Assembly: GCA_029262695.1 (NCBI GenBank)
Contig: JAJCYV010000022.1
Coordinates: forward strand, 49,787-113,786
Length of the DNA: 64,000 nt
Direction: 5' to 3'
DNA from: Chloroflexota bacterium
GTDB lineage: Bacteria; Chloroflexota; Dehalococcoidia; SM23-28-2; RBG-16-64-32
The notes under the pieces are model-generated. The model was given only the letters and a program-made list of their open reading frames with translations, was not told where the DNA came from and did not search any database. The translations under genes were made by a program, and so were the position numbers. Of the stretch, positions 1-41,206 are shown piece by piece. Numbering within the stretch: the first letter of the stretch is position 1; each line of letters opens with the position of its first letter.

Positions 1-100
1 CTCGCCCCCGCAGGCGGGCACGAGACTCGATTGGTCCCGGGCGCACGAGACCGGCGAGAGAGCCTCAGATAATGGCGCCCGTAGCTGGGGGCGACACGTC

Positions 101-1381
101 CTGGCGCTCGGCCTGAACTACAGGCGAGCGCCGATCCACCTCCGGGAGCGGCTCTCCTTTTCGGGCAGGGACCTGGACGATTCCCTGACGGAGCTCAAGC
201 GCCACGTCCCGGAGGGTGCCATCCTTTCGACCTGCCATCGTGTCGAGCTCTACGCCGCGACGAACGACACTGCTGAGGCAACCGAGGCGCTGGAGACGTT
301 CTGGAAGACTGCCAAACGAGTTCAACCTGAGGAGTTCAGGCCGTATGTCTACCGGCTTGCTGACCGGGAAGCTGTGCAGCACCTGCTGACGGTGTCCTGC
401 GCGCTGGACTCAGCGATCGTGGGCGAACCGCAGGTACTCGGGCAGGTGCGGGACGCCCTGCGGCGCGGCCTCGCGGCGAAGTCCATGGGCCGGGTGCTCT
501 CCACCCTGTTCAGACAGGCCGTGACGACCGGAAAACGGGCGCGAACGGAGACGGCGATCGGGCGCAACGCTGCCTCGGTCGGTTCGGCGGCGGTGGAGAT
601 GGCGCGGCGGCATTTCGGTGACCTCAGCTCGGCCCACGTTCTTCTGGTGGGCGCCGGCAAGATGGGCGAACTCGCGGCGAAGAGCCTCGTGGACCGTGGC
701 GCTTCTGAGATCGCGGTTGTTGGGCGCACAGTTGAGCGGGCCCAGCAGCTGGCGGTCCGCTGCGGCAGCACGGCGACGCTCACGCAGCTAGAGGACGGCC
801 TTCGCGGCTGCGACATCGTGATTTCGGGCACCAGCGCTCCCCACCCTGTCATAGTCAAGCAGATGGTGGAGCGGACGATGGAGACCCGCCGAGACCGGCC
901 GCTCCTCATCATCGACATCGCCATCCCCAGGGACGCGGAACCAGCGGTGGCCGACGTGCCCGGCGTGAGCCTCCTGAACATCGACGACCTTCAGGAAACT
1001 GTGGAAACCAACGTACAAGGGCGCCTGGCAGAGGCCGCCGACGTTGAGTACATCATCGAAGATGGGCTGGCGCAGTTCGACGAGTGGATGGACGTCCTCA
1101 GGGTCGTCCCAACCATTACCGCCCTTGTGCGGCGCGCGGACGAGATCCGGGACTCGGAGCTGGCGCGAATGTCCGGAGTCCTGGGACGTCTTCCGGAGCA
1201 GGACCGGCGGCGCATCGAGGCGCTTACACTTGCCATACAGAAGAAGCTTCTGCACCGGTCAATCATGGCCCTGCGGGCGAGCGCTGCCGGCGGCAATGGC
1301 GTAGAGTCGAGCCGTGTCATGTCAGACCTCTTCGGGCTGGCCCCTCCGGCCCGCGAGGTCCAAGGGGAGGAAGTGCGATGA
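101..1381 (+). CDS. hemA: Glutamyl-tRNA reductase (HemA). N-terminus unresolved: the frame is open back to the window edge with no in-frame ATG/GTG/TTG before 374.
   Basis: Translation from 101 reads LALGLNYRRAPIHLRERLSF...CHRVELY..., the canonical HemA N-terminal block. A GxGxxG NADPH site (LLVGAGKMGELAA) and the C-terminal dimerisation region follow. The track ORF 374..1381 is only the distal part of this frame. Confidence 0.8.
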   Translation: MALGLNYRRAPIHLRERLSFSGRDLDDSLTELKRHVPEGAILSTCHRVELYAATNDTAEATEALETFWKTAKRVQPEEFRPYVYRLADREAVQHLLTVSCALDSAIVGEPQVLGQVRDALRRGLAAKSMGRVLSTLFRQAVTTGKRARTETAIGRNAASVGSAAVEMARRHFGDLSSAHVLLVGAGKMGELAAKSLVDRGASEIAVVGRTVERAQQLAVRCGSTATLTQLEDGLRGCDIVISGTSAPHPVIVKQMVERTMETRRDRPLLIIDIAIPRDAEPAVADVPGVSLLNIDDLQETVETNVQGRLAEAADVEYIIEDGLAQFDEWMDVLRVVPTITALVRRADEIRDSELARMSGVLGRLPEQDRRRIEALTLAIQKKLLHRSIMALRASAAGGNGVESSRVMSDLFGLAPPAREVQGEEVR

Positions 1382-2634
1382 TCCCGGTATCCGCGCTATT
1401 GGACGGAAGCGTCCGCCCAGAGGACGCTCTGCGGCACCGGCGGTCCACCGCCAGGCTCCCTTCCCACCTCATTCACTACTCACAGGACAAGAAGCCCGTC
1501 GTTGTCTGGAACGGCACGCGGCGCTGCAACCTGCACTGCATGCACTGCTACGCTTCGGCCACCAACCGGGAGGACCCGGGCGAGCTGACCACAGACGAGG
1601 CCGTGCAGCTCATCGACGACATCGCAGCCTTCGGCTCACCGACGATGCTCTTCTCTGGTGGAGAGCCCCTGATGCGGGCAGACATCTTCGACCTGGCCGC
1701 CCACGCCTCTCGCCGCGGCCTCCGCTGCGTCCTCTCAACCAACGGCACGCTGATCACCGACAAAGTAGCGCGGCAGATTAGCGAGGCCGGGTTCGTCTAC
1801 GTCGGCATTAGCCTGGACGGTATGAGGGACGTGCACGACAAGGTACGCGGCAAGAAGGGCTCATTCGACGAAGCGCTGGCGGGGATCCGCCGCTGCCGGG
1901 ACATCGGCATGAAAGTAGGCGTCCGCTTCACGCTGCACGGCAAGAACGTGCAAGACCTGCCGGCAGTCCTCGATCTGCTGGAGGAAGAGAACATCCCCCG
2001 CTTCTGCATGTACCACCTCGCCTACGCGGGGCGCGGCGATCAGATTCGGCGCTTTGACCTGAGCCCGGCCGAGACGCGGGCCGCCATGGCATATCTGTTC
2101 CAGCGCGTCGAAGACTTCCACCGCCGCGGCATCGGCAAAGAGATACTGACAGTCGACAACCACGTCGACTCCGCCTACCTCTACCTGCGCATGCGCGAAG
2201 AGGACCCGGAGCGCGCGGATGAAGTCCTCCAGCTCCTCGGCTGGAACGGGGGCAACCAGTCAGGGATCGCTGTAACTTCAATCGACCCGGTGGGGAACGT
2301 GCACGCCGATCAGTTCTCGTGGAACTACAGCTTTGGCAACGTCCGGGAGCGGCCTTTCAGCGCTATCTGGCCCGACCGCTCCGATCCCAGGATGGCGGTC
2401 TTGAAGGACCGCAAGAGCCACCTCAAGGGACGCTGCAAGTCCTGCCGGTTCCTCGATATCTGCAACGGGAACCTGCGCGCCCGCGCCGAGAGCTACTTCG
2501 ACGACTTCCTCGCCCCGGATCCGGCCTGCTACCTCACAGATGAGGAGATCGGGATCAGCGCCGGCTCTCCACAGGCCCTTGAAGCAGCGGAATGGCCCGT
2601 ACCCGTCCAGCAGGCCGCGGAGGCAGTTTCGTGA
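1378..2634 (+). CDS. Radical SAM / SPASM-domain protein, AhbC/AhbD/NirJ-like (heme-related radical SAM), paralog 1
   Basis: ATGA overlap with the hemA stop. It has the CNLHCMHC CxxxCxxC radical-SAM motif about 55 aa in, then GGEPL and a C-terminal Cys-rich SPASM-like region (CKSCRFLDICNGNLRARA). The true start is ATG 1378, inside track ORF 1084..2634. Confidence 0.7.
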   Translation: MIPVSALLDGSVRPEDALRHRRSTARLPSHLIHYSQDKKPVVVWNGTRRCNLHCMHCYASATNREDPGELTTDEAVQLIDDIAAFGSPTMLFSGGEPLMRADIFDLAAHASRRGLRCVLSTNGTLITDKVARQISEAGFVYVGISLDGMRDVHDKVRGKKGSFDEALAGIRRCRDIGMKVGVRFTLHGKNVQDLPAVLDLLEEENIPRFCMYHLAYAGRGDQIRRFDLSPAETRAAMAYLFQRVEDFHRRGIGKEILTVDNHVDSAYLYLRMREEDPERADEVLQLLGWNGGNQSGIAVTSIDPVGNVHADQFSWNYSFGNVRERPFSAIWPDRSDPRMAVLKDRKSHLKGRCKSCRFLDICNGNLRARAESYFDDFLAPDPACYLTDEEIGISAGSPQALEAAEWPVPVQQAAEAVS

Positions 2635-3791
2635 ACGACCCGGGCCCGGCCACGCGCGAGACCGGCGCCACAGTGCGCCACGGGATGGACGCCCGCCTGG
2701 CGGAGTCCAACTTTGACCGGTCGCCCTTCGTCCTGGCATGGGAGATCACCCGCGCTTGCGCGCTGTCCTGCCTGCATTGCCGGGCCGAAGCCCAGCCGAA
2801 GCCCGACCCAGACCAGCTAACCAGCAAGGAGGCGCTGAGCCTGGTCGACGAGATCGCGGAGATGGGCAACCCCATCCTCGTGGTTACCGGCGGCGACCCG
2901 CTTATGCGCCGCGATGCCTTCGACATCCTTACTTATGCCGTCCAAAAGGGGCTGCGCACGTCCCTGACACCCAGCGCCACGGCACTGGTGACACCAGAGA
3001 ACCTGGCGCGGGTACGAGAGACCGGCGTCAGTCGCGTAGCGATCAGCCTTGACGGCCCCTCCGCCGAAGTCCACGACCGCTTCCGCGGCTTCCGTGGCTC
3101 CTTCGATCGGACGCGGCAGATCATGCGAGACGTGATCGAAGCTGGTCTCTCTCTTCAGATCAACACGACCGTTAGCCGCTACAACCTGCCTGTCCTGGAG
3201 CAGATGCCGGACATAGTCGCACAGGCGCAGGCCGTCCAGTGGAGCGTCTTCTTTCTCGTGCCCACGGGCCGGGGCAAGGAGAGCGACATGATTTCAGCAG
3301 AGGACCACGAGCGGCTCTTCAACTGGCTATACGACCTCTCCCGCAGCGCGCCGTTCGACGTCAAGAGCACCGCCGCGCCCGCCTACCGGCGGGTGGCAGT
3401 ACAGCGGGCCCAGAAGGAGCAGCACAACGGCGCCGATGGCCGGCCGATAGCTGGTGCAGGTTACCGTTTCCAGGACGGTCTGCACCGTCCCACGCTGGGT
3501 GTGAACGACGGCAACGGGTTCTGCTTCGTTTCCCACGTTGGCGAGGTCTGCCCGTCCGGCTTCCTCCCGCTATCAGCAGGCAACGTCCGCACCCAGGGCC
3601 TCGCCGACCTGTACCGAAACTCGAAGCTGTTCCGCGATCTGCGCGACCCCGCAGAGCTGAAGGGCAAGTGCGGCGTCTGCGACTTCCGTAGCGTGTGCGG
3701 CGGCAGCCGCGCCCGGGCCTGGGCGGTAAACGGCGACTACCTCGCGGAAGACCCCTCGTGCGTGTATTCGCCGGCTGAGGAGCCGGCGTGA
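2631..3791 (+). CDS. Radical SAM / SPASM-domain protein, AhbC/AhbD/NirJ-like, paralog 2. Alternative starts are ATG 2592 and ATG 2685.
   Basis: CALSCLHC radical-SAM motif, GGDPL, and a C-terminal CGVCDFRSVCGGSRARA SPASM-like block. Its architecture parallels the upstream gene. GTG 2631 overlaps the upstream stop as GTGA. Confidence 0.65.
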   Translation: MNDPGPATRETGATVRHGMDARLAESNFDRSPFVLAWEITRACALSCLHCRAEAQPKPDPDQLTSKEALSLVDEIAEMGNPILVVTGGDPLMRRDAFDILTYAVQKGLRTSLTPSATALVTPENLARVRETGVSRVAISLDGPSAEVHDRFRGFRGSFDRTRQIMRDVIEAGLSLQINTTVSRYNLPVLEQMPDIVAQAQAVQWSVFFLVPTGRGKESDMISAEDHERLFNWLYDLSRSAPFDVKSTAAPAYRRVAVQRAQKEQHNGADGRPIAGAGYRFQDGLHRPTLGVNDGNGFCFVSHVGEVCPSGFLPLSAGNVRTQGLADLYRNSKLFRDLRDPAELKGKCGVCDFRSVCGGSRARAWAVNGDYLAEDPSCVYSPAEEPA

Positions 3792-4054
3792 ACGCGGTGC
3801 GAACCGGCGATGAGGAAGTTAAGCGCAGGAGCGCCGGGAGGATCGTGCTAAGGATCGTAATGAGGGTTGTGATGCCCTCGTTGATGCTTGGCTTCGCGGC
3901 GTACACGGTGGCAAACGGTGGACTCCAGGGTCTGGTTGCCCTGCTCCCCATTCTGGCCGCGCACGTCGTTGGCTTCCTCGTGATCTTTCCGCTTTGGGTC
4001 CGCTTCCGGCGAAGGCGCGTCGCCACTTCCGCCGCGGTGCCTGATGGCAACTGA
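3788..4054 (+). CDS. Small hydrophobic membrane protein (hypothetical), translationally coupled on both sides
   Basis: GTG start overlapping the radical-SAM stop (GTGA). The 88 aa product has two hydrophobic helices. Its 3' end overlaps the start of the next gene. Confidence 0.3.
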   Translation: MNAVRTGDEEVKRRSAGRIVLRIVMRVVMPSLMLGFAAYTVANGGLQGLVALLPILAAHVVGFLVIFPLWVRFRRRRVATSAAVPDGN

Positions 4055-4682
4055 GGCCACCAACCGGCGATCTCTCCTGAGGCCCGTTGGCATCGGCCTT
4101 GCGGCCCTTTTCATGGGGCTGCTCCTATTGGCAGGCGCCTGGATGCTCTGGATCTTCGTACTTCGTCCCCCGCCCGACGGTTTCGCCCCCACCACCGGTG
4201 AGGCCTCCGGCATCGATGACCAGCAGACAAGCGTGCTTCAGTACACGATCGACGCCAGGAGTCGAGAGGACTGGGTGTACTTCAGCTTCGAGGAGGGGAT
4301 GGTCATATCCACCTCACAGGACGCGCTGGACTGGGACCTGGCGGTCCGCCGCAACGACCTGCTCACCAACGGCGGCGAAAGCAACCCGCTGGGCATGGGT
4401 GGGGCCGTCGATCTGGGCAAAGTCACTCTTGCTGAGGCTGTGGCGCCCAGCGACGGCTTTCTGACAGACGAGACCCACGAAGACCGCGGGCTTGAAAACC
4501 CGGACTTGCACAAGTGGTACAACTACAACTGGACTACGCACATCATAACGAGCAAGGACCACACCTACGCTCTCCGAACACCGTCGGGTGAAGTGGCGCT
4601 GCTGACCTTTGTCTCCTACTACTGCGATGACGGATCATCGGGCTGTGTAACGTTCCAGTACCGCGGGCCCGAAGAGCGCTGA
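4044..4682 (+). CDS. HmuY-like (heme-binding-family) protein with N-terminal membrane anchor
   Basis: N-terminal TM helix (IGLAALFMGLLLLAGAWMLWIFVL). Core DWDLAVRRND...NGG resembles the HmuY-family W-D-x-A-F-R-N / NGG signature, and a Cys-containing C-terminus (YYCDDGSSGCVTF) follows. Confidence 0.4.
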   Translation: MATEATNRRSLLRPVGIGLAALFMGLLLLAGAWMLWIFVLRPPPDGFAPTTGEASGIDDQQTSVLQYTIDARSREDWVYFSFEEGMVISTSQDALDWDLAVRRNDLLTNGGESNPLGMGGAVDLGKVTLAEAVAPSDGFLTDETHEDRGLENPDLHKWYNYNWTTHIITSKDHTYALRTPSGEVALLTFVSYYCDDGSSGCVTFQYRGPEER

Positions 4683-4751
4683 GCGCTCGCTTCAGGACTC
4701 CCTCTCCGTATCTAGACACACCCGAACACAGGGCCCCACGGTCGGTAGGCT

Positions 4752-6404
4752 CTAGCTTCGCTGATGCACGTAGAACGCCACGGCCTCTGGCGGCGGCGGG
4801 GCGTTCCGGAGGATCAGGTCCGCAGCCTTCTCGGCGATCATCATCACGGGAGCGTAGATGTTGGCGTTGGTCACGTAAGGCATCACTGAGGCGTCCACCA
4901 CCCGCAGGTTCTCCAGGCCATGAACCTTCATGCTCGCCGGGTCGACAACGGCCATGCCGTCAACACCCATCTTGCAGGTGCCTGAAGGATGCAGGGCCGA
5001 CTCGCCGTCTCTGGCTACCCAGTCCAGGATATCCGGGTCGCGATGCACTTCCGGACCGGGAGAAATCTCACCACCGCTGAACTCTGTGAATGCGGGTTGG
5101 TTCAGTATGCTCCTGGCGCAGCGGACGGCTTCAACCCACTCACGACGGTCCTCGTCTGTGGAGAGGTAGTTGAACCTGAGGCTCGGATGATCATTCACAT
5201 CGGTGCTTCTGATCTTCACCGAACCGCGTGCACTCGAGTACATCGGCCCGACGTGCAGCTGATAGCCATGCCCCGAAGTCGGAGCGGACCCATCGTATCG
5301 TATCGCGAGCGGCAGGAAGTGAAACATCACGTTGGGGTAGTCAACGTCCTCGTTGCCGCGCACGAACCCACCGGCCTCGAAGTGATTGGTCGCGGCAGGC
5401 CCCTTCCTGTTGAAGAGCCACTGGAATCCAATCCACGGCTTGTTCGACCACTTCAAGGCGGGGTACATCGAGACCGGTTTCGTGCACGCGTGCTGAACGT
5501 AGACCTCCAGATGGTCCTGCAGGTTTTCGCCCACACCTGGAAGGTCGTGCAGGACCTTGACTCCGAGGCGTTCCAGCTCAGCGGCGTTGCCAACGCCGGA
5601 AAGTTGCAGCAGTTGTGGCGAGTTAAATGCGCCACCGCAGCAGATCACTTCGCCCCCGCGAACCACCCGGGGTTTACCACTACCGTGGGTGTACTCGACG
5701 CCGACCGCCTTCTTGCCTTCGAAGAGAATCCTTGTAGCGACCGCCGCAGTCTTGACTGTGAGATTGCCCCGGCTCTTCACGGGGTGCAGATAAGCACGTG
5801 CGGCGCTCAGTCGGCGTCCCCTCTCGATGTTGCGATCGAAGCGAGCGAAGCCTTCCTGGCGATACCCGTTCACGTCGTCAGTAAGCGAGTAGCCGGCCTG
5901 CTGCACAGCCTCGAAGAACGCCTCGAACAGCGGCGTCTCCCCGGGCCCTCGCTCCAGGACCAGAGGCCCGGAGTCACCGCGATAGTCGTCGCCGCCCGCA
6001 GTACACGTCTCCATTCGCTTGAAGTACGGCAGGCAATGAGCGTAGTCCCAGTCGCCCATCCCCTCGTCGCGGCTCCACTTCTCGTAGTCCAGCGGATTGC
6101 CACGCTGGAAGATCATGCCGTTGATGCTGCTCGAACCGCCGAGCACCTTTCCCCGTGCGTGATAGATGCGCCGGTTGTTCATGAACGGCTCCGGCTCGGA
6201 CTCATAGCACCAATCGTAGAACCTGTTGCCGTTGGGATAGGTCAGTGCAGCAGGCATGTGAATGAAGATGTCCCAGAAGTAGTCCGGCCGGCCGGCTTCC
6301 AGAACCAGCACCTCTCGCGTGCGATCTTCACTCAGCCGGTTCGCCAGAACGCAGCCCGCCGACCCCCCGCCCACGATGATGTAGTCGTACGTCTTCTGCG
6401 CCAT
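4752..6404 (-). CDS. GMC-family FAD oxidoreductase (choline dehydrogenase-like)
   Basis: N-terminal [25 protein letters not shown] fingerprint, GMC signature [18 protein letters not shown], and a C-terminal GTCKMG active-site region. The real start is the MAQKTYDY Met at 6404 inside track ORF 4752..6509. Confidence 0.8.
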
Positions 6405-6710
6405 GTAGCCTACTGTACGGTCGGCCGGAGCGCATGGAAAGAAGTGCATCGCATCGCAACACGCACCCAGAACTGATTGTCTCCTGCCTGTGGGGTGCCA
6501 AAATGCCATCCGTATCTGGAAGTGTTAGGGCGTGAAGCCTCCTCCAAGAGCGAAGTTGACTTTGCGGCCCAGTTGAGTGAGCACGGGCGGAGTGCTTGTG
6601 CCGTCTCATGGGCGCGCCGTTCCCACGGGAGCAATTTGCCGTGCCGTTCGCTAGAATAGGGCACGGCCCCGGTCAGACCCACGCAAGACACCCCCGGAGA
6701 GAGGACTGAA

Positions 6711-17568: not shown

Positions 17569-18612
17569 CTACGCAGAGCGGGCCCGGACTCGCAGGTACA
17601 GAGACCCGAGTCCAACCACGACAGCCGCGCCGCCAAGGGCAAGAACCAGCATCAGCGCGGTAGACACGCCGCCATCGTCGCCGGGTGCGCCGCCTGTGGT
17701 CGGGACGCTGCCCGGGCTGGCGGTGGGTCCGGGTGTGGCTGTGTCCTGGGCAGCGCCCGGCAGGCTGGTGACGATCCATCCTGAGTCCGCACTTGTGAGG
17801 TGGCCGGTGTCCGTCCAGCCGGTCAGGCCCTCGTCAGCATCCCAGTAAGCCAGGGCGATCTTTGCAGTGCCACCAGCTACGAACTGGGCGTCCTCAATGT
17901 CGCCCGTCTGCAGCGGACGCGACATCTCGAAGGTCCAGGTGCCAGCCTCGCCGATCGTGGCACTCGTGTGGCTCCAGGACCCAGCGAGACTGTTTTCGGC
18001 ACCGGAGGCACTCGCGGTCTTGCCGTCGTCTTCGCGGGTCTCCGGATCAGTGGCGTACTCGTCGTCCATGTTGCAGTCCGGGTAGTTGCCGCTCCCGGCG
18101 TCGCCGCCACCGGACATCGCACCGGCGGCGCAGTCCAGCTCCCAGTGCCAGATGTCCACCATCCCCAGACCGGCCTCGAAGTCGCTATCGCCGGAGCCCA
18201 TGTGGGGGCCGGCAGCCGCGTCGATGAGGAACTGCACGGCGAGAGCCGCCGACATTTTGTGGTCATTGGGAGGGACAACACCATCGAAGTCGTAGTCGTC
18301 CGGCACCTCAACCAACACGTAGATGTTGGTGTCATCGGTAGCGACCTTGAGGGTCACGTCCACCGGGTCAAGCGGGCCGGGTGCGTCCCAGTCAACGCCG
18401 GCGGGGATCTCGAACTGTTTCAGGTTGACCGTGAGGCCGGTGATGGCCGCCCAATCGGCGCTGTTGCCGTCCACGGTGATCGTGGCGTCGGCCGCGTCCA
18501 GGCTCAGGTCTGCCTGGGCGGTGCCGCTGCCGACCATCAGGACCAGCGCAAGGGCCGCGGCGATCACGGCTCCCAGGCCTGCGGACCGAAGCGTACTTGT
18601 CCAGCTACTCAT
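17569..18612 (-). CDS. Secreted DOMON/EB_dh-like (CBM9-like fold) protein, paralog 1. Sec signal peptide and C-terminal TM anchor.
   Basis: Signal peptide (...GSGTAQA/DLSL). An ITVDG-x3-DW start, PHMG, MVDIWHWELDC, PDCNMDDE and GHLTSADSGWI blocks are shared with the two paralogs. C-terminus has a Pro/Thr linker and a hydrophobic anchor. GAGGAGG RBS. Confidence 0.55.
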   Translation of the reverse strand: MSSWTSTLRSAGLGAVIAAALALVLMVGSGTAQADLSLDAADATITVDGNSADWAAITGLTVNLKQFEIPAGVDWDAPGPLDPVDVTLKVATDDTNIYVLVEVPDDYDFDGVVPPNDHKMSAALAVQFLIDAAAGPHMGSGDSDFEAGLGMVDIWHWELDCAAGAMSGGGDAGSGNYPDCNMDDEYATDPETREDDGKTASASGAENSLAGSWSHTSATIGEAGTWTFEMSRPLQTGDIEDAQFVAGGTAKIALAYWDADEGLTGWTDTGHLTSADSGWIVTSLPGAAQDTATPGPTASPGSVPTTGGAPGDDGGVSTALMLVLALGGAAVVVGLGSLYLRVRARSA

Positions 18613-18715
18613 TTTGATTACCTCCTCTTTCGTACTTTTTCATGACGCGGGCAATATTGTGTCGCGTTGCTTATACCCTCCTTCTCCATGGTGGGTCAAC
18701 ATTCGGGGGGAAACT

Positions 18716-19681
18716 CTACGGGAGCCTCACCTCTATCCAGCCGCTTTCGGCACTCTGCAGGTGCCCGGTGTCCGTCCAGCCCTCCAGCGTTTCGTCCGGA
18801 TCGAAGTAGGCAAGCGCCATCAGCGCGGTGCCGCCGCTTTCGAACTGGGCATCCTCAGCGTCACCTGTCTGCAGGGGCCTTGACATCTCGAAAATCCAGA
18901 CGCCGACTGCATCCGGGCCGTCCGCGCTCGCAGTATGCGTCCAGACGCCAACCAGGCTATTCTCTGCATCGGCGTTGGCGGTGTCACCACCTCCATCATC
19001 CTCACGGTCTTCTGGATCAAGCGCGAACTCGTCGTCCAGGTTGCAGTCGGGGTCGTCGCCACTCCCGGGATCGCCCCCACCGGATGCAAGTCCGGCAGCG
19101 CAGTCCAGCTCCCAGTGCCAGATGTCGACCATCCCCAGGCCCAGCTCCAGGTCCTCATCCTCGGCACCCATGTGAGGCCCGGCGGCCGCATCGATGAGGA
19201 ACATCACGGCGAGCGAAGGAGAGAGGTTATGGTCGGCCGGGTCGAAGTCGTAGTCGTCGGGCACCTCCACCAACGCATAGAGGTTCCCACCGTCAGTGGC
19301 CATCTTCAGCGTGACATCGATGTCGTCGAGAGGCCCGGGCTCATCCCAATCCACGCCGGACGGGATCTCTATCTGTTCCATCGGCACGGTGACGCCCTCG
19401 ATATCACTCCAATCCGAACTGTCCCCGTCCACGGTGATCGTCGCTGTCGCGGCGTCGAGCGTGATCTCGTCACCATCACCCGCGTCGGTCGGTGCGGCCG
19501 TGGGAGCATCCGTGGGATCATCCGTGGGGGCATCCGTTGGTGCCGCCGTGGGCTCCGCCGTCGGTGACGCTCCGTCATCGTCGTCGCCGCCGCAGGCCAC
19601 GGCCACAAGCGCCAGCACTGCGAGCGCCGCCAGCAGAACAATCACTGCCTTCGCTCCTCTGCGGGTTAGTAGATTCATCAT
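18716..19681 (-). CDS. Secreted DOMON/EB_dh-like protein, paralog 2. N-terminal signal peptide or possible lipoprotein, with an acidic PT-rich linker.
   Basis: Start MMNLLTRRGAKAVIVLLAALAVLALVAVAC-GGDDDDG after an AAAGGAGA RBS. The track ORF 18716..19912 is over-extended. It has the same conserved blocks as paralogs 1 and 3 (PHMG, MVDIWHWELDCAAG, PDCNLDDE, GHLQSAESGWIEV). Confidence 0.55.
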   Translation of the reverse strand: MMNLLTRRGAKAVIVLLAALAVLALVAVACGGDDDDGASPTAEPTAAPTDAPTDDPTDAPTAAPTDAGDGDEITLDAATATITVDGDSSDWSDIEGVTVPMEQIEIPSGVDWDEPGPLDDIDVTLKMATDGGNLYALVEVPDDYDFDPADHNLSPSLAVMFLIDAAAGPHMGAEDEDLELGLGMVDIWHWELDCAAGLASGGGDPGSGDDPDCNLDDEFALDPEDREDDGGGDTANADAENSLVGVWTHTASADGPDAVGVWIFEMSRPLQTGDAEDAQFESGGTALMALAYFDPDETLEGWTDTGHLQSAESGWIEVRLP

Positions 19682-19748
19682 CTCCGGTCTCCTTTCATTT
19701 CTCCGGCGTGTGTGGCTGGCATCGTCACTCCGTTCAACATCCCTGGGC

Positions 19749-20216
19749 TCAGTCGGAGCCCTCCTGCCCGATAGCCTCCAGGAACGCGAACAGTCGTTCG
19801 GCTTCTTCGTCACTAAGGGTCTCTTCAACAAATGCAGGCATCCCTTTCGGGCCCTTACGCACTTCCTGCAAGAACTCCGAGAGATTGAAGTCGGACGCAT
19901 CAATGTCTCCACCCACCGTCGCGCCCTGGCCCGTCAGGCCGTGGCAGCTCGCGCAGTTGTTTGCGAAGAACAGGATTCGCCCGTCGGTGAGGGGGTCGCC
20001 GGTCGTATGGTCCGGATCAGCGAGGGATAGGCCTTCGAATGATGCGGGCTCGCCAAGCGTGGCGAGTTCGGTCCGGTCGTAGCCCTCGGGTTCGAGGTTG
20101 TGGTGCGTATACGGGCTGCGGGCGATAATCACGCCGATGAGCGTGAACGCGAGGGCACTCATCACGATGGCGCCCATGATTGGGCCCGGCGGCACCGAGC
20201 GTCTAACGACACGCAT
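19749..20216 (-). CDS. Membrane-anchored mono-heme class I c-type cytochrome
   Basis: N-terminal TM helix, a single CASCH heme-binding site, and a downstream GMPAF Met-ligand region. The start codon overlaps the upstream stop. Confidence 0.75.
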   Translation of the reverse strand: MRVVRRSVPPGPIMGAIVMSALAFTLIGVIIARSPYTHHNLEPEGYDRTELATLGEPASFEGLSLADPDHTTGDPLTDGRILFFANNCASCHGLTGQGATVGGDIDASDFNLSEFLQEVRKGPKGMPAFVEETLSDEEAERLFAFLEAIGQEGSD

Positions 20217-21766
20217 CAGTCATCGTCCTCCAGGTGGCCTGGCTCCGAGAGCCTGTCGTCTCTGTCCAGCGAACCGCTCTCTGAGAGCCTGTCGTCCCTA
20301 TCCAGGATGCCGGCGCCAGAGAGCCTCGCTTCTTCGTCCAACCGGCCGGGGCCGCGGAAGTCAACCCTATCAGCCTCCTCGGGGACACCGGTCGCGCGCG
20401 CGATGGCGATGACGCGGACGGCGATAGTGATCAAGACCACCCACACAGTCGTTGCCACGGCGATGATGATCCAGACGCCAAGCCCCGGGATGTCGACTCC
20501 CGCCTCTGACCGGTATATCTGACCCCCTTCCGCAACCACCAGGGACTGCGAAGCGGCGACCGGCTCAGCCGCTTCCGGCAGCAGATACTCGATCACGAGG
20601 TCCTGATCGCCGGCGCGACGTGGCACGAAGTCCATCTCTGCCCGGCCGTCGTCGTCCGTAGTCGCGGCCGCCACCTCGACCATCCCGGTGACGCCCGCGA
20701 AGGTCACCTCACGGAGGATCCGCACTTGCACGCCGGCAACCGGTGACCCGTCCGTCGTGGACGTGAGCGTCACTAGGACGTCTGCCAGATCACCCACGCG
20801 TGGATCGGCCGATACGGTGATCTCTGCTTTCCCGTCAGAGTCACCGCCCGCGGGTGGCGCTATGGTGGGCGTGGGCGAGGTCGCGCCTCCCGGAGTGGGA
20901 GTCGCCGCCGGTGGCTGGGTGGCATCAGGGCCCGGTATCAGCACTTCGATCCAGCCCTCGCCGGCGCTGGTGAGATGTCCTGCGTCAGACCACCCGATGG
21001 CACTCTCGTCGGCGTCGAAGTAAGCGAGGGCGAGGAAGGCGGAGGTATTCTGTGCGAACTGGGCGTCCTCAGGATCGCCGGTCTGCAGCGGACGCGACAG
21101 CTCGAAGATCCAGGCGCCGTCGGCACCGGCACCACCGGCGCGGCCAGTGTGGTCCCAGGCGCCGGTCAGGCTGTTCTCAGCGTTCGGGTTCGCGTCGGGG
21201 CCGCCGCCATCGTCATCGCGTTCCTCAGGTTCGGTACTGAACTCGTCGTCCAGGTTGCAGTCGGGGTCATCGCCGCTGCCAGGGGCGCCTCCTCCGGCGC
21301 TTTCACCGGGGCCGCAGTCGAGTTCCCAGTGCCAGAGGTCAACCATGCCCAGGCTCTGCTCGAAGTCCTGGTCGCCTGAACCCATGTGCGGGCCCGCTGC
21401 CTGCTCGATCCGGAACATGGCGTTGGGCGAGCCCGAGAGTTTGCCGTCGTTGGGATCATAGTCGTAGTCGTCGAAGACTTTGATCAGAAAGTAGATGCGT
21501 TCGCTGTCCGCGGCGGCCTTTACCTCTGCTTGAACCGCGTCCAGGGAATCGTATTCCCAGTCGGAGCCCTGCGGTATCTCGAACTGGGCGAGCGTCAGCG
21601 TCAGACCGTCGATCCCGGCCCAGTCGGAGTCGTCCCCATCGACCGTAATGGTCGCGGCGGCCGCCGGGAGCGAGAGGTCGGCGCGAGCCGGGTCTGCTTC
21701 AGCGCCGAGTGACAGCACGACCGCGGCCAGAGCGACGGCCAGCAGGGAGATGCCCCAGGAGCGCAT
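20216..21766 (-). CDS. Secreted DOMON/EB_dh-like protein, paralog 3. It adds an Ig-like/CarboxypepD_reg-like domain, a TM helix and a repetitive acidic cytoplasmic tail.
   Basis: Signal peptide, the same PHMG / MVDLWHWELDC / PDCNLDDE / GHLTSAGEGWIEV blocks, a beta-sandwich-like segment (VRILREVTFAGVTGMVEVAAATTDDDGRAEM), a TM helix (VWIIIAVATTVWVVLITIAV), and a tail with repeated DRDDRLSE units. ATGA overlap with the NrfD stop. Confidence 0.55.
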   Translation of the reverse strand: MRSWGISLLAVALAAVVLSLGAEADPARADLSLPAAAATITVDGDDSDWAGIDGLTLTLAQFEIPQGSDWEYDSLDAVQAEVKAAADSERIYFLIKVFDDYDYDPNDGKLSGSPNAMFRIEQAAGPHMGSGDQDFEQSLGMVDLWHWELDCGPGESAGGGAPGSGDDPDCNLDDEFSTEPEERDDDGGGPDANPNAENSLTGAWDHTGRAGGAGADGAWIFELSRPLQTGDPEDAQFAQNTSAFLALAYFDADESAIGWSDAGHLTSAGEGWIEVLIPGPDATQPPAATPTPGGATSPTPTIAPPAGGDSDGKAEITVSADPRVGDLADVLVTLTSTTDGSPVAGVQVRILREVTFAGVTGMVEVAAATTDDDGRAEMDFVPRRAGDQDLVIEYLLPEAAEPVAASQSLVVAEGGQIYRSEAGVDIPGLGVWIIIAVATTVWVVLITIAVRVIAIARATGVPEEADRVDFRGPGRLDEEARLSGAGILDRDDRLSESGSLDRDDRLSEPGHLEDDD

Positions 21767-23127
21767 CAGTTCGCACCTCCGGCTGGCTCAGCAGCGGCGC
21801 CGGGCGGGGGCGCGGGAGCGGCAGACGCCAGAGATAGCTCGTAGTCCTCCTCAACCTCCCAGTGCGCCATGATGGGGAAGATCTTGACGAATATCGAGAT
21901 GAGTAACGCGAAGAGGGCGAACCCGGCCGCCATGATGGAGAACTCCACCCAGCTCGGACTGTAGCTGGAGGGTTCGTAGGGCATGAGCGGCACGCGCAGG
22001 CCGGTGACGACGATGAAGTAGCGCTCGACCCACATCCCGGCGTCAACGAAGACGGCCGCAACGAGAATGCCCCAGAAGTTCCGTGTCCACGGTAAAAGAA
22101 TGATGAGCCCCGGCAGGACAAGACCGCCGAGCATATAGAACCAGTAGAAACCGGCGTACTCCTCCCTGAACAGCTGGTTGAAGTGAAACTCCACGCCCTC
22201 TTCCAGCTTGTAGCCGGTCGTCAGGAACTCCGAGATATTGGCGTAGATCATGATCAGAGCGAAGGCTCCCATCATGTAGCCCAGGTAGATGAAGTGCTTC
22301 TCGTGGATGTACTCCTCCAGGTGGTAAATCTTGCGGAGGATCGCCATGACGATAATCAGCGTGGCGATGCCGGAGAAGATCGCCCCTGCCACGAAGAAGG
22401 CGCCGAAGATCGTGCTGTTCCACGGCTCTCGCAGCGTCATGCCGAAGATCCACGAGACGACGGTGTGGACGGAGACGGCGATCGGCAGGATCAGGAGCAT
22501 GGCCACGGTCATGGCGGAGCCCAGGTTCCGCTTCTGAGCGGCGTTGCCCACCCATCCGACTGCGAGGATGCTGTAGAGCCGGAGACGCCAGGCCGAAACG
22601 CGCCCGGCCAGCCTGTCACGGAGAAACGCCATGTCGGGGATCATCGGCAGGAACAGATAGGCGATGCTCCCCGTCAGGTAGGTCGTTACGGCCAGCACGT
22701 CCCAGACGATCGGTGACTGCCAGCGGCCGTAGAGGATGATGTTGAAGAGGCGATCCACCCGGCCCATGTCCACGATGACGAAGATGGCGCCGCACGAGAG
22801 CGCGACCACCGTAATGAATTCCGCCAGGCGGGTTATCGGCGTCCGCCAACGCGCTTGAGTTATGCGCAGTATGGCCGAAATCAACGTGCCGGCGTGACTG
22901 ATGCCGATGAAGAAGACGAACGTGGAGATGTAAAGGCCCCAGGAGATGCGATCGCGCATGTCGGTGACGATGAGGCCATCGTTGAGCTGCCCGTAGAAAG
23001 CGTATACACCCCAGCCGATCACCACCAGGAGAAAGGCGATCCACAGATAGTAGATTCGGCTGGTGTTGAGGAGCGGAGCCGTGATCGTGTGCTCCAGCCG
23101 CTGGCGCCAGGAGCTCATCTCCTCCAC
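21766..23127 (-). CDS. NrfD/PsrC-family polytopic membrane subunit (quinone-interacting)
   Basis: 453 aa with about 10 predicted TM helices and NrfD-like composition. It is translationally coupled to the FeS subunit upstream and the DOMON-like gene downstream. Confidence 0.6.
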   Translation of the reverse strand: MEEMSSWRQRLEHTITAPLLNTSRIYYLWIAFLLVVIGWGVYAFYGQLNDGLIVTDMRDRISWGLYISTFVFFIGISHAGTLISAILRITQARWRTPITRLAEFITVVALSCGAIFVIVDMGRVDRLFNIILYGRWQSPIVWDVLAVTTYLTGSIAYLFLPMIPDMAFLRDRLAGRVSAWRLRLYSILAVGWVGNAAQKRNLGSAMTVAMLLILPIAVSVHTVVSWIFGMTLREPWNSTIFGAFFVAGAIFSGIATLIIVMAILRKIYHLEEYIHEKHFIYLGYMMGAFALIMIYANISEFLTTGYKLEEGVEFHFNQLFREEYAGFYWFYMLGGLVLPGLIILLPWTRNFWGILVAAVFVDAGMWVERYFIVVTGLRVPLMPYEPSSYSPSWVEFSIMAAGFALFALLISIFVKIFPIMAHWEVEEDYELSLASAAPAPPPGAAAEPAGGAN

Positions 23128-24110
23128 GTCTTCGCCCCCTTAACCCGCTCGACCCACGGCCACTCGGTGGGCAAGCGCCCCTCGTCCGCTGTGTCGCGGC
23201 CGACGGCTTCCCCGTGGCCAGGGATGTAGTACACGCGTGGCTTCGTGCCCTTGTCTTCCTTCAGGCGGTAGGCCTGATTCTCGGAGAGGAACCGGGACGC
23301 GGCGACTATCTCCTTGCCGTTCGTGGCGACGTCGTCCTCAAGGTCTCCGTAGTAGATGGCGTCGTTGGGGCAGGCTTGAATGCAGAACGGCAGCGTCCCC
23401 GCACGGACCATGTCCGGGCAGAAGTCGCACTTCATGACAGTGCCCTTCTTTGCAGGCACCTGGTGCTCAGGCGAGTAGTCGGCGAGCAGCGCCTCCGGCG
23501 GGACCGGCGGGTCACCCCAGTTGAAGAAGCGTCGGTCGTAGGGGCAGGCCGCCATGCAGATCCGGCAACCGATGCAGCGGTCCTGGTCGATGAGCACCGT
23601 CCCCTCGGGCGTCGAGAACGTGGCCGCCACGGGGCAGACGTTGACGCACGGCGGGTTCTGGCACTGCTGGCACGGCGTGGGGATGAACTGAGTGCCGCCT
23701 CCCGGCAACTCGTGCTCAAAGATCTGAATCCACTCCATGGGCTCGGGCGCGAAGTGACCTTCGACGCAGGCGGTCGTGCACTGGGGCGGCGTGCCCTGGC
23801 TCTGGCAGCCGTCGCAGGAGCGGAGGTCGATGATCATCGTCCACTGCCGGATGCGGCCGCCGGGCCCCTTGGCAGGCTCTCCTTGCGATTCCACGACGCG
23901 TCCGGCGTCTGACGCCTTCTGCAGGACCGGGGGCAGGAGGATTAGGGGCGCAGCGCCTGCCGCGGCCATGCCGAAGAGTCTCAGCACGCCGCGCCGGCTT
24001 ACCTTCGGCGGCTGGGTCGGCTCCCCGGGCCTGTCGTCTCGGTCGCTTGCGCCTGAGCCGCCATCGTTCTTGCCCATCATCTTCTTCTCCACCTTTAGCT
24101 CACGCTTCAC
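23115..24110 (-). CDS. Tat-exported 4x[4Fe-4S] ferredoxin-type subunit (PsrB/NrfC/DmsB-like). Alternative starts lie at 24080 and 24077.
   Basis: Twin-arginine signal SRRGVLRLFGMAAAGAAP. Four Cys clusters (CDGC...C, CQQCQNPPCVNVCP, CIGCRICMAACP, CDFC...CIQACP). Confidence 0.75.
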   Translation of the reverse strand: MKRELKVEKKMMGKNDGGSGASDRDDRPGEPTQPPKVSRRGVLRLFGMAAAGAAPLILLPPVLQKASDAGRVVESQGEPAKGPGGRIRQWTMIIDLRSCDGCQSQGTPPQCTTACVEGHFAPEPMEWIQIFEHELPGGGTQFIPTPCQQCQNPPCVNVCPVAATFSTPEGTVLIDQDRCIGCRICMAACPYDRRFFNWGDPPVPPEALLADYSPEHQVPAKKGTVMKCDFCPDMVRAGTLPFCIQACPNDAIYYGDLEDDVATNGKEIVAASRFLSENQAYRLKEDKGTKPRVYYIPGHGEAVGRDTADEGRLPTEWPWVERVKGAKTWRR

Positions 24111-24331: not shown

Positions 24332-25030
24332 GTGGCAGATAAGAAACCGGTGGTGGGGACAATTCGCGTCATCATAGCGGAAGACCACGCCGTCGTGCGT
24401 GAAGGCACGCGCGAGCTCCTCGAACGAGAGAAGGACATCGAAGTCATCGGCGAGGCAGCTGACGGTGCCGAAGCCGTAGCGCTGGTCGATAAGCTCCGTC
24501 CGGACGTCGCCATCGTCGACATCTCTATGCCCGGCATGGGTGGCATAGAAGCGACGCAGAAGATTAAGGCGCTGCGCCCCTCGACAGCCGTGTTGATTCT
24601 CACCGCTTACGATGATGACCAGTACGTATTCGCGCTCCTTGGTGCCGGCGCCGCAGGGTACCTCCTTAAGGACGTGCCGTCTGCAGAGGTCGTGCGGGCC
24701 GTCAGGGCTGTGCATGCCGGGGAGCCGGTGCTCCATCCGGCCATAGCGAAGAAGGTCCTCGCCAAGATCGCGTCGGAAGCGACGAACGACGAGCCTCCCC
24801 CGCAGGCATCCAGGACGGTACTTACGGACCGCGAGCGCAACGTTCTGCGCCTGGCCGCCTGCGGAATGAGCAACGCCAGCATCGCAAGCCGGCTAAGCAT
24901 CAGCCTGCGTACTGTCCAATCACACCTGTCTCACACATTCGACAAGCTGGGGGTCGGTTCCAGAACCGAGGCCGTAATAGTCGGTCTTCGTCGCGGATTC
25001 CTCGAACTCGGTGATCTGGATGAAAGCTGA
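24332..25030 (+). CDS. NarL/LuxR-family response regulator
   Basis: REC domain (IRVIIAEDH...VAIVDISMPGMGG) plus a C-terminal LuxR HTH (RERNVLRLAACGMSNASIASRLSISLRTVQSH). GTG start. GTG 24350 is an alternative start. Confidence 0.85.
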   Translation: MADKKPVVGTIRVIIAEDHAVVREGTRELLEREKDIEVIGEAADGAEAVALVDKLRPDVAIVDISMPGMGGIEATQKIKALRPSTAVLILTAYDDDQYVFALLGAGAAGYLLKDVPSAEVVRAVRAVHAGEPVLHPAIAKKVLAKIASEATNDEPPPQASRTVLTDRERNVLRLAACGMSNASIASRLSISLRTVQSHLSHTFDKLGVGSRTEAVIVGLRRGFLELGDLDES

Positions 25031-26570
25031 AGCGAGGACAGCACCGGCAACCCGGCCGTCGCCGACAGCACGCGGTCTGTGGCTCCGGATTTCCAGACCC
25101 TTCCGCGCATTACCCCAGAGGATCCGAGAGCCGCGCTTCTGGCAGGTTCAGGCGCTGGTCGTGCTGGCCACCGCACCCCACTACATCATCGAGTCCAGCG
25201 AAGACTTTGCCAGGTTCGAGAGCTGGGGGCTTCACAGTCTGGCTATCAGCCTGTATATCCTTCCGCTCCTGTATGCGGCACTGAACTACAGATGGGAGGG
25301 GGCTCTTCTGACCGGCCTGTGGGCCGCCGCGCTCGTGTCTCCCAGCATCTGGTACTGGGACCGCGGCGAATCACACTATCTGACCGAGATAGGGCAGTTG
25401 TTGGTCACACTTCCAATCGGCCTGCTCGTAGCGTGGCGCGTCGACATTGAGGCAAGGCAACGGCGCCGGGCCGAACAGACCAGCGCCAGCTTGAGCCTAC
25501 TGAACCAGACTGGTGAGGCGCTCAGCCACACTCTGGAAGCAGAAGAACAGGTGCCTCTGGTCCTGCGCAAGCTGCTTTCGGATCTCCCCCTCGATTCCAC
25601 CTGGCTCTGCCTGGCGTCCGATTCCCAGGGCGAGCTGCGGGTCATTGCCGAACTCTCCGATGAAGGCGGCCGCGTGCCCGCGGGAATGCCGCAGGAGCGA
25701 CACGGGCGCATCGAAGACGCGCTGGCGACTCAGGTCGAGGAGGGATACGTAACGGTACCACTGCTCACGAAGGATGGGCTAGTCGGTTCTCTCGGAGCGG
25801 CCATGTCCGGTGGGGAAGACCCTACGGACGAACAGATTGAGGTGCTGACAACTGTCGCGCGGCAACTCTGCGCGGCCGTCGTCAACGCACGCCTTTACCG
25901 TGAAAGACAGGAGAGCCTGCAGTCCTACGTCAGGCACGTAACGGAGGCGCAGGAGGAAGAGCGTCTGCGCATCGCCCGGGAGCTTCACGACGAGACCGCC
26001 CAGGAGCTGATCCAACTCGTGCGCGGCCTGGAGCAGATCGACGATGGTTCCGACGACACGAGAGCGCAAGGCGTTGACGATCTAATCAAGGCAACACGAG
26101 AGACGATTCGATCGGTGCGGCGCTTCAGCCGTGACCTCAGGCCATCGGTGCTCGACGATCTCGGCCTGCTGGCCGCGATCGAGGTGATTGTGGAGGATAC
26201 CGATTCGAGACTTCCCGGGGGCGCCACGCTGCGCGTGAGTGGAAAGGCAGAGCGGGTAGCGGAGGCAGTTGAGCTGGCGTTGTTCCGCATCGCTCAGGAA
26301 TCCCTGAGAAACGTTGAGAAGCACGCCGGGGCGACGTCCGCAGCGGTCGCGCTCGACTTTGAGCCCGGCGCCATCAAACTTTCGATCTCCGATGATGGCG
26401 ATGGCTTCAACGTCTCGAACGTCTCCGATCTGGCCCGTGCTGGAAAGCTCGGACTGGTGGGCATGAAAGAGCGCTGTGAGCTGGTGGGTGGCTCGTTTGA
26501 CGTATATTCGAACCCTAAAAAGGGCACCCGCATCGTGGTCACAGTCGGCGGCAGCCAGCGAGACCTCTAG
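25011..26570 (+). CDS. Membrane sensor histidine kinase with GAF and HisKA_3/HATPase domains (NarX/DegS type)
   Basis: N-terminal TM helices, a GAF-like region, the H-box ELHDETAQELIQL (HisKA_3), and an HATPase (GLVGMKERCELVGG). It overlaps the response-regulator gene's 3' end. Confidence 0.8.
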   Translation: MIWMKAEARTAPATRPSPTARGLWLRISRPFRALPQRIREPRFWQVQALVVLATAPHYIIESSEDFARFESWGLHSLAISLYILPLLYAALNYRWEGALLTGLWAAALVSPSIWYWDRGESHYLTEIGQLLVTLPIGLLVAWRVDIEARQRRRAEQTSASLSLLNQTGEALSHTLEAEEQVPLVLRKLLSDLPLDSTWLCLASDSQGELRVIAELSDEGGRVPAGMPQERHGRIEDALATQVEEGYVTVPLLTKDGLVGSLGAAMSGGEDPTDEQIEVLTTVARQLCAAVVNARLYRERQESLQSYVRHVTEAQEEERLRIARELHDETAQELIQLVRGLEQIDDGSDDTRAQGVDDLIKATRETIRSVRRFSRDLRPSVLDDLGLLAAIEVIVEDTDSRLPGGATLRVSGKAERVAEAVELALFRIAQESLRNVEKHAGATSAAVALDFEPGAIKLSISDDGDGFNVSNVSDLARAGKLGLVGMKERCELVGGSFDVYSNPKKGTRIVVTVGGSQRDL

Positions 26571-30902: not shown

Positions 30903-30903
30903 G

Positions 30904-36550: not shown

Positions 36551-36552
36551 AC

Positions 36553-37290: not shown

Positions 37291-37302
37291 GGGAGGCGCA
37301 AG

Positions 37303-41203: not shown

Positions 41204-41206
41204 CCG

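Follow-up and report, generated by a model that had tools for sequence, protein, structure and literature searches.

The analysed window, a 64,000-nucleotide stretch of a Chloroflexota contig, begins with five same-strand genes that overlap one another at their start and stop codons:

2..1381, + strand: hemA, glutamyl-tRNA reductase (TIGR01035; GlutR_N, Shikimate_DH and GlutR_dimer domains)
1378..2634, + strand: RS1, AhbC-type radical-SAM enzyme (TIGR04546 and TIGR04054 scores, motifs, ATGA overlap)
2631..3791, + strand: RS2, AhbD-like radical-SAM enzyme of family TIGR04053 (TIGR04053 score, motifs, cluster context)
3788..4054, + strand: TM88, an 88-aa protein with two predicted transmembrane helices (hydropathy, conserved position)
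4044..4682, + strand: HmuY-fold protein, 212 aa (PF14064, phmmer, AlphaFold2/Foldseek)

Re-reading the sequence reproduced the gene set and couplings of the initial annotation. The ATG of RS1 at 1378 overlaps the hemA stop codon TGA at 1379-1381 (ATGA), the GTG of RS2 at 2631 overlaps the RS1 stop (GTGA), the GTG of TM88 at 3788 overlaps the RS2 stop (GTGA), and TM88 (3788-4054), the small coupled membrane protein of that annotation, shares 11 nt with the downstream HmuY-like reading frame (ATG at 4044). A search for consensus promoters and terminators inside the five-gene operon found none. The identical five-gene order recurs in independent assemblies (loci L163 and L092/L164 of our comparison, and in part L091), with hemA as the first gene of the operon in L163, so that the arrangement is not due to chance. 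The proposed paralogy of the two radical-SAM proteins is also borne out (31% identity over the full length, E 3e-48), as are their motifs and Cys-rich C-termini: RS1 combines CNLHCMHC (CX3CX2C) with a C-terminal CKSCRFLDIC...C (CX2CX5CX21C), and RS2 combines CALSCLHC with CGVCDFRSVC-X20-C (CX2CX5CX20C).

The assignment of the first gene as hemA holds (TIGR01035, 414.8 bits vs a cut-off of 209.55), its product matching three Pfam domains, GlutR_N, the NAD(P)-binding Shikimate_DH and GlutR_dimer. Position 101, at which the range given in the initial annotation opens, is where the homology to HemA begins and is not a start codon. The frame is open back to base 2 of the window and holds no ATG, GTG or TTG upstream of 101, and related HemA proteins carry a conserved N-terminal extension of 50-80 aa including a conserved SENGG..WGRH stretch; hemA therefore extends past the left edge of the window and lacks its 5' end here.

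The profile scores of RS1 agree with the AhbC reading given in the initial annotation. RS1 reached 557.7 bits with the AhbC model TIGR04546 and 514 bits with the NirJ1 model TIGR04054 (both under the curated cut-off of 650), 416 bits with the NirJ model (cut-off 515) and at most 136 bits with models of peptide maturases, which had been named as a possible best match and are not one. RS1 orthologues from Chloroflexota and Bathyarchaeia whose ahb clusters are complete score like RS1 itself (523-599 bits), the only AhbC control above the cut-off being a Desulfatitalea protein with 768 bits. A true NirJ used as a control (L075) showed the reverse pattern, with 632 bits for NirJ vs 381 for AhbC. 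Judged by these family scores and by some 40 N-terminal residues that are missing from the NirJ model, RS1 is closer to AhbC than to NirJ. A role of the two proteins in haem d1 formation (NirJ-type) or as SPASM peptide maturases is extremely improbable: both do fall in the SPASM/Twitch radical-SAM group, and RS1 shares 45-50% identity with gammaproteobacterial NirJ, but the scores above point to AhbC, and neither nirS/F/N nor precursor-peptide genes were found nearby. The predicted reaction of RS1 is the formation of Fe-coproporphyrin III (coprohaem) from 12,18-didecarboxysirohaem.

For RS2 the earlier AhbD reading stood in part. The protein is AhbD-like, and it lies outside the AhbD equivalog, scoring 381.8 bits with TIGR04545 against a cut-off of 500; its best assignment is TIGR04053 (474.3 bits, cut-off 395, model positions 2-366 of 366), a sister family of AhbD with no named function. 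With the ATG at 2592 as an alternative start, RS2 would be 399 aa long; in the relatives, gene callers took the equivalent upstream start. The two motifs found in all AhbDs, CX3CX2C and a C-terminal CX2CX5CX20-38C (PMC10452713), are both present. RS2 lacks the full SPASM set, its sole addition being CX8C, and thus differs from the AhbD of methanogens and sulfate reducers with their eight-Cys SPASM motif (PMC10452713); AhbDs of non-methanogenic archaea likewise lack the full set. TIGR04053-type proteins (454-476 bits) occur in loci L017, L021, L026, L027 and L071, all with AhbAB, and in the Chloroflexota clusters that hold AhbAB and AhbC the TIGR04053 protein is the sole AhbD-like gene. Because of this gene context in other Chloroflexota, we infer that RS2 would act as an oxygen-independent coprohaem decarboxylase (haem b synthase).

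The adjacency of RS1 and RS2 is kept in most of 80 loci (Chloroflexota, Desulfobacterales, Bathyarchaeia, Selenomonadales). The operon of L087, on the other hand, is without RS2. AhbA and AhbB (NF040708/NF040707, above cut-off) are encoded beside RS1/RS2 orthologues in 39 of 83 related loci, 12 of these from Chloroflexota, and hemB, hemL, cobA-hemD and sirC also cluster with the orthologues there. Since orthologues of both proteins lie in complete Chloroflexota ahb clusters, and given the family scores, the Ahb reading of RS1 and RS2 is well supported. The sirohaem decarboxylase genes ahbA/B, to which the initial annotation pointed as a check, are thus present beside orthologues in relatives; on the other hand, a search of the 64-kb window and of 232 kb of closest-clade loci found neither these nor sirohaem genes, hemB or hemL, so that the completeness of the pathway, and with it the earlier suggestion of an Ahb route rather than HemN/HemH, is unproven.

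This negative result would fit a clade without sirohaem decarboxylase, in which RS2 serves as the oxygen-independent coprohaem decarboxylase of the coproporphyrin pathway and RS1 acts on another tetrapyrrole. Coproporphyrin-pathway bacteria also employ AhbD-type enzymes by themselves (PMC13564367, PMC7242693), many Gram-positive bacteria possess AhbD but no other Ahb enzyme (PMC13564367), and Chloroflexota, where sirohaem-route genes have already been noted, mix enzymes of all three haem pathways (PMC10991733). RS2 resembles these lone enzymes in being AhbD-like, outside the classical equivalog and from a Gram-positive-type (monoderm-related) phylum (PMC13564367). However, RS2 differs from them by its translational coupling to an AhbC-type gene, for which no role is known in the coproporphyrin pathway or in the absence of didecarboxysirohaem, and RS1 is 55-62% identical to AhbC orthologues adjoining AhbAB, with family scores that give no sign of divergence. 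We regard this alternative as quite unlikely and retain the sirohaem-dependent reading of the two enzymes.

The last two genes of the operon are of a different kind. TM88 has predicted helices at residues 19-37 and 44-62 (hydropathy), with one conserved His in helix 2, and gave zero matches in Pfam and NCBIfam. Its 51 homologues, those with names being from Dehalococcoidia, lie directly upstream of the HmuY-like gene in every locus where they could be located, except for a truncated remnant in L002. The HmuY-like call for the final gene is upheld by Pfam (PF14064, 62.5 bits vs a gathering cut-off of 27), by a phmmer match to Porphyromonas gingivalis HmuY (PDB 3H8T, E 5.7e-14), in which DWDLAVRRND...NGG aligns with NWDMALHRYD...CGESG, and by structure prediction. 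An AlphaFold2 model of moderate confidence (pLDDT 67.8, with residues 143-168, the loop holding the candidate ligands, below 50) retrieved with Foldseek only HmuY-family structures among its top 10 matches (probability 1.00, TM-score 0.47-0.61). The protein is predicted to consist of an N-terminal anchor (approximately residues 10-40), which has no lipobox, and an extracytoplasmic beta-sandwich domain; the anchor and two invariant cysteines, C194 and C201, fit such a location. The axial haem ligands of P. gingivalis HmuY are His134 and His166, with Met in some homologues. H156 of our protein aligns with His134, although 3 of 24 relatives have N or R instead, and the most conserved block of these proteins, NPxLHKWYxYNWTTHIxTSKxH, contains the residue so aligned. 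The second ligand, P. gingivalis His166, falls in an unaligned loop and has no counterpart; the invariant H166 of the present family and H173, found in at least 90% of the sequences, lie elsewhere.

The genomic neighbourhood of this family directs attention to a second operon in the window, 13 kb from the hemA operon and itself without a HmuY gene, together with the divergent regulatory genes next to it:

17569..24110, - strand: Tat-exported NrfC-like FeS protein, NrfD, EB_dh protein (516 aa), monohaem cytochrome c, EB_dh protein (398 aa) and EB_dh protein (347 aa) (Pfam, signal peptides)
24332..26570, + strand: LuxR-type response regulator and HisKA_3 histidine kinase (Pfam; divergent from the EB_dh operon)

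Among 40 informative loci, 33 have the HmuY-like gene at the end of such an FeS-NrfD-cytochrome c-EB_dh operon, right after the last EB_dh gene; this gene is thus not primarily a neighbour of haem biosynthesis genes. The two-component pair is conserved with the EB_dh operon, which it flanks in L085, L093, L113, L120, L126, L129 and L131. L093 holds a complete EB_dh operon followed by TM88-HmuY, and in L087 a hemA-ahbC-TM-HmuY operon abuts the kinase/regulator pair, which stands directly between it and the FeS gene. Only in the lineage studied here, one narrow clade, have TM88 and HmuY moved behind ahbD, a relocation that may have been a neutral event. EB_dh is a haem-b-binding family, and the EB_dh operon of the window is the probable functional partner of the HmuY-like protein. 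Its EB_dh proteins carry Sec-type or lipoprotein signals without twin arginines, as well as membrane anchors, which means that, if they do bind haem b, it would have to be supplied outside the cytoplasm.

Three roles of the HmuY-like protein were weighed against this context. Capture of external haem for uptake together with TM88, as in Bacteroidota, would be in keeping with the family membership (Pfam, 3H8T, fold) and with the many predicted haem auxotrophs in Chloroflexota (bioRxiv 10.1101/2021.01.11.426183). However, no TonB-dependent receptor (hmuR), haem ABC transporter or hmuSTUV was found near the gene in about 80 loci, its neighbours are respiratory-type or haem synthesis genes, and the protein is anchored in the membrane rather than released, which makes scavenging unlikely. 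A second possibility, somewhat better placed though still doubtful, is that the protein is a redox-active haem-b or structural subunit of the FeS-NrfD-cytochrome c-EB_dh complex, and that its linkage to ahbD serves only co-expression with the haem supply. The terminal position in the EB_dh operon and a membrane anchor like that of the cytochrome c and EB_dh subunits speak for such a subunit, in which the invariant H166 and near-invariant H173 could hold haem permanently. On the other hand, all characterised HmuY proteins are reported to be reversible haem binders (hemophores), not electron carriers (PMC12106395), and the gene can leave the operon and nevertheless be retained (the window, L087, L088-L090), a behaviour that suits an assembly factor better than a stoichiometric subunit. 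The third role, extracytoplasmic haem binding or hand-over of haem b, is the one we infer.

Overall, we favour, with a probability of roughly 60%, a single operon made of two modules, in which the HmuY-like protein would bind haem b on the outer face of the membrane and either donate it to the EB_dh proteins or work with them. The first module, hemA-ahbC-ahbD, would cover the committed entry step into tetrapyrrole synthesis and, on the sirohaem-dependent (Ahb) route, the final two steps to haem b. RS1 would take two acetate side chains off 12,18-didecarboxysirohaem to yield coprohaem, and RS2, acting as an AhbD of the TIGR04053 type, would turn two propionates into vinyls by decarboxylation and so yield haem b. 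Each would use radical-SAM chemistry and a single auxiliary [4Fe-4S] cluster at its C-terminus; the AhbAB sirohaem decarboxylase and the enzymes of the earlier steps would have to be encoded elsewhere. The second module, TM88 and the HmuY-like gene, would originally have stood last, at the 3' end, in an operon encoding an electron-transfer complex that is bound to the membrane and faces outward, composed of a Tat-exported FeS protein, NrfD, an anchored cytochrome c and Sec-exported EB_dh-type proteins. The pair would then have been relocated behind ahbD in this lineage and become translationally coupled, the HmuY-like protein most likely binding haem b on the outer face of the membrane and passing it to, or working with, the EB_dh proteins. 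Of this picture, the identities of the genes, their overlaps, the folds and the conserved order are observed; the catalytic activities, the binding of haem and its hand-over are predictions.

In its first part the operon resembles the Ahb clusters of Desulfovibrio vulgaris and Methanosarcina barkeri (AhbA/B, AhbC, AhbD): adjacent, hemA-linked AhbC-type and AhbD-like genes, the same CX3CX2C and C-terminal CX2CX5CX20-21C motifs in both products, and Chloroflexota orthologues beside AhbAB, sirC, cobA-hemD, hemB and hemL. In contrast to those clusters, ahbA/B are not nearby in this clade and the operon runs on into two non-enzymatic membrane proteins. The HmuY-like protein shares PF14064, the all-beta fold, the DWD..R.D..N.G.S pattern and the His134-aligned histidine with HmuY of P. 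gingivalis and its Bacteroidota homologues (Tfo, PinO, BfrB, BVU_2192), but comes from another phylum, has a membrane anchor in place of the lipoprotein signal and two added invariant cysteines, lacks an aligned His166 ligand, and is partnered by EB_dh, cytochrome c, NrfD or haem synthesis genes instead of hmuR/hmuSTUV and other uptake genes. The partner operon, with its three EB_dh-domain proteins, recalls ethylbenzene dehydrogenase gamma subunits and NxrC-type haem-b proteins, and one of the three is weakly similar in sequence to Kuenenia NxrC (7B04_C). Unlike those systems it has no molybdopterin catalytic subunit, and its EB_dh proteins bear their own Sec or lipoprotein signals and anchors, whereas in the known systems export occurs with a Tat partner.

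The Ahb part adds an unremarkable further example to an established pathway: another Chloroflexota lineage that has sirohaem-route genes, together with context evidence for the unnamed TIGR04053 family as haem synthase in Chloroflexota ahb clusters. What is new is the TM88-HmuY tail. So far, to our knowledge, the only known HmuY proteins have been hemophores with which Bacteroidota scavenge haem; in Chloroflexota, gene order now links a large branch of the family to secreted EB_dh proteins and, in one clade, to a haem synthase. How haem b is delivered non-covalently to proteins exported unfolded via Sec is poorly understood, and the TM88-HmuY pair may be regarded as a concrete candidate for this supply. 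In a bolder and decidedly tentative extension, Chloroflexota HmuY-fold proteins, with TM88 in this clade, might be dedicated to the delivery of haem b outside the cytoplasmic membrane, loading Sec-exported EB_dh-type b-cytochromes and wired here to the haem synthase gene. If true, the HmuY-fold system would be the b-haem counterpart of cytochrome c maturation.

The window carries a five-gene operon with high third-position G+C, made up of hemA, two radical-SAM genes (RS1 and RS2), a gene for an 88-aa membrane protein (TM88) and a gene for a 212-aa HmuY-like protein. Adjacent genes overlap at 4/4 junctions, and a convergent GMC oxidoreductase gene closes the unit:

2-4682, plus strand: five-gene operon
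1378-1381, plus strand: hemA/RS1 junction, ATGA overlap
2631-2634, plus strand: RS1/RS2 junction, GTGA overlap
3788-3791, plus strand: RS2/TM88 junction, GTGA overlap
4044-4054, plus strand: TM88/HmuY-like junction, 11-nt overlap
4752-6509, minus strand: GMC oxidoreductase gene

A promoter and terminator scan of positions 1-6700 revealed no consensus element inside the operon, nor did Rfam an RNA element. The product of the first gene exceeds the TIGR01035 cut-off for HemA (415 vs 210 bits). The initial annotation had read this operon exactly, its motifs included (CNLHCMHC, CALSCLHC and DWDLAVRRND...NGG), but the position it gave for hemA, 101, is the start of the HemA homology, and the gene itself runs off the window edge. 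The frame is open to base 2 with no ATG, GTG or TTG codon before the HemA-homologous start near 101, and relatives encode an N-terminal extension of 50-80 residues with a conserved SENGG..WGRH stretch, so the gene is truncated. The same five-gene operon occurs in the related loci L163, where hemA is the first gene, and L092/L164.

RS1 (418 aa) scores 558 bits with the AhbC profile, 514 with NirJ1 (the old name of AhbC), 416 with NirJ and at most 136 with peptide-maturase models, in agreement with the AhbC/AhbD-like character originally proposed for the two radical-SAM proteins. The AhbC score falls below the family cut-off of 650 bits, for which RS1 orthologues from complete ahb clusters and a true gammaproteobacterial NirJ served as controls. 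For such orthologues (L058 from Dehalococcoidia, L022 from Chloroflexia and L045 from Bathyarchaeia) the AhbC score is 523-599 bits, the only control above the cut-off being a Desulfatitalea protein (768 bits), and the true NirJ gives the reverse pattern (NirJ 632, AhbC 381 bits). These scores indicate that the cut-off is simply narrow and that RS1, as judged by its profile matches, is AhbC-type. RS1 and RS2 share 31% identity along their entire length; reading them as NirJ (haem d1) enzymes or as peptide maturases conflicts with the family scores and the gene context and was rejected. The PDB holds no solved AhbC, AhbD or NirJ structure, the best matches being SkfB, PqqE and BlsE.

RS2 (386 aa, or 399 aa from an ATG at 2592) is AhbD-like but lies outside the AhbD model: the protein passes the cut-off of TIGR04053 (474 vs 395 bits) and stays under that of AhbD (382 vs 500). 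It carries CX3CX2C and CX2CX5CX20C, two motifs universal in AhbDs, and is devoid of the full SPASM set, in which it resembles the AhbDs of non-methanogenic archaea (PMC10452713). A fused AhbAB is encoded beside the RS1-RS2 pair in 12 Chloroflexota loci, and in all five of those that were scored (L017, L021, L026, L027 and L071, each combining fused AhbAB, AhbC and a TIGR04053 protein) the TIGR04053 member (454-472 bits) is the sole AhbD-like gene. This context supports a role as haem synthase for TIGR04053, an NCBIfam family without a named function that no paper in our literature search mentions.

The nearest protein matches belong to uncultured Chloroflexota, for the most part Dehalococcoidia, and the best match in the genome collection is 78% identical. 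An RS2 homologue adjoins RS1 or lies within a few kb of it in most of 80 genome loci, spanning Chloroflexota, Desulfobacterales, Bathyarchaeia and Selenomonadales. When all neighbouring ORFs of the related loci were clustered into families, an AhbA/AhbB family that passed both equivalogs appeared in 39 loci, encoded either by two genes (~160 aa each) or by a single fusion (~330 aa); the clusters there also include porphobilinogen synthase, GSA aminomutase, CobA-HemD and SirC. Within the clade nearest to the window (RS1 67-92% identical), neither the pair nor the five-gene operon is accompanied by ahbAB. As tblastn queries, AhbAB, HemB, HemL, CobA-HemD and SirC gave no match, either in the window or across 232 kb of loci of this clade, and when the other called genes of the window were scanned with Pfam, no haem biosynthesis gene emerged. 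The proposal that the organism uses the Ahb (sirohaem-dependent) route is partly supported: it is backed by the AhbC-type and AhbD-like genes and by the clusters of relatives, but not by any ahbA/B in the window or in the 232 kb. According to reviews, AhbD also acts alone in coproporphyrin-pathway bacteria (PMC7242693, PMC13564367), and Chloroflexota combine enzymes of all three haem pathways (PMC10991733). For this genome we favour the Ahb route over the other readings, short of proof. The Ahb part of the operon adds another case of a known pathway, which had been noted in this phylum before. In one close relative (L087, 2182-4311; RS1 91% identical) the AhbD-like gene is cleanly absent from a hemA-ahbC-TM-HmuY array.

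Several other features of the window were recorded. A c-di-GMP-I riboswitch (RF01051, 82 bits; 11681-11769, minus strand) lies upstream of a 60-aa ORF (11343-11525, minus strand) resembling an excisionase/MerR-type helix-turn-helix protein; it is divergent from a PAS-GGDEF-EAL gene (1250 aa; 12013-15765). At 30252-31854 (minus strand) a thioredoxin-like/Redoxin protein adjoins a DsbD/CcdA-type membrane protein, a kind of pair used in cytochrome c maturation, with a DUF3179 protein nearby (28136-29290). Three successive ORFs at 36152-38031 (132, 245 and 242 aa) have a strong coding signal and no Pfam match.

The last gene of the operon bore out its description as HmuY-like. Its product matches Pfam HmuY and, directly, Porphyromonas gingivalis HmuY (E 5.7e-14), and its AlphaFold2 model (pLDDT 67.8), for which 24 relatives were used, matches HmuY-family structures only. 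A membrane anchor lies at the N-terminus of the protein, two Cys and His166 are invariant, His173 is near-invariant, and His156 aligns with the haem ligand His134 of HmuY; the most conserved block holds these residues and is at the same time the loop modelled with the least confidence. A Tat signal (NRRSLL) was rejected, as relatives do not conserve its twin arginine. TM88, with two helices predicted, belongs to no family and has only 51 homologues; this number, and the mere ~100 nt that separate the EB_dh and HmuY genes in most EB_dh-HmuY loci, led us to reject it as a general HmuY partner.

The genomic home of the HmuY-like gene was assessed in 72 loci from metagenomes plus several long contigs, counting the 40 loci with at least 700 nt upstream. 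The gene directly upstream encodes an EB_dh-domain protein in 33/40, AhbC or AhbD in 3/40 and other products in 4/40. The full arrangement consists of a divergent HisKA_3 kinase and LuxR-type regulator followed by a Tat-signal FeS protein, NrfD, cytochrome c, EB_dh and HmuY. The window has its own EB_dh operon, which ends without a HmuY gene:

17569-24110, minus strand: EB_dh operon
24332-26570, divergent from it: LuxR-type two-component regulator pair

Two loci bridge the arrangements. In L093 (HmuY 74% identical) a full EB_dh operon is followed by TM88-HmuY, and in L087 the hemA-ahbC-TM-HmuY array abuts the kinase/regulator pair and the FeS gene. From these loci we conclude that TM88-HmuY is a unit which, in one clade, left its place behind the EB_dh genes and came to close the haem operon. 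A truncated TM88 remnant (L002, 12438-12581; 29 residues, 83% identical) after an RS1-RS2 pair with no HmuY gene suggests past loss of the unit. In L088-L090 a stand-alone HmuY-like gene adjoins genes like those at 38384-46552 of the window, which resemble acyclic-terpene/leucine catabolism (Atu/Liu; carboxyltransferase, biotin carboxylase with BT domain, enoyl-CoA hydratase and AtuA). Our literature search found no paper tying HmuY to Chloroflexota biology or describing an EB_dh-NrfD operon of this type, and the tail formed by the HmuY-like gene, like its strong association with EB_dh operons, appears undescribed.

EB_dh is a haem-b-binding domain family. The operon encodes three EB_dh proteins, an NrfC-like Tat-signal FeS protein, NrfD and an anchored monohaem cytochrome c, and no molybdopterin subunit; one EB_dh copy is weakly similar to NxrC. 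The operon, conserved in Chloroflexota, has the appearance of an outward-facing module for quinol-linked electron transfer. The EB_dh proteins have Sec or lipoprotein signals, no twin arginines and C-terminal membrane anchors. They would be exported unfolded via Sec and loaded with haem b outside the cytoplasm, where haem must be supplied to any haem-b protein exported in this state. Haem scavenging by the HmuY-like protein could be considered, but no uptake genes accompany its gene in any locus; alternatively, it may be a permanent redox or structural subunit, or its place behind ahbD may reflect a neutral rearrangement. The outer-side anchor and the gene-order ties both to EB_dh proteins and to a haem synthase make the HmuY-like protein a plausible haem-b carrier or loader, which would pass haem b to the EB_dh proteins on the outer side of the membrane.
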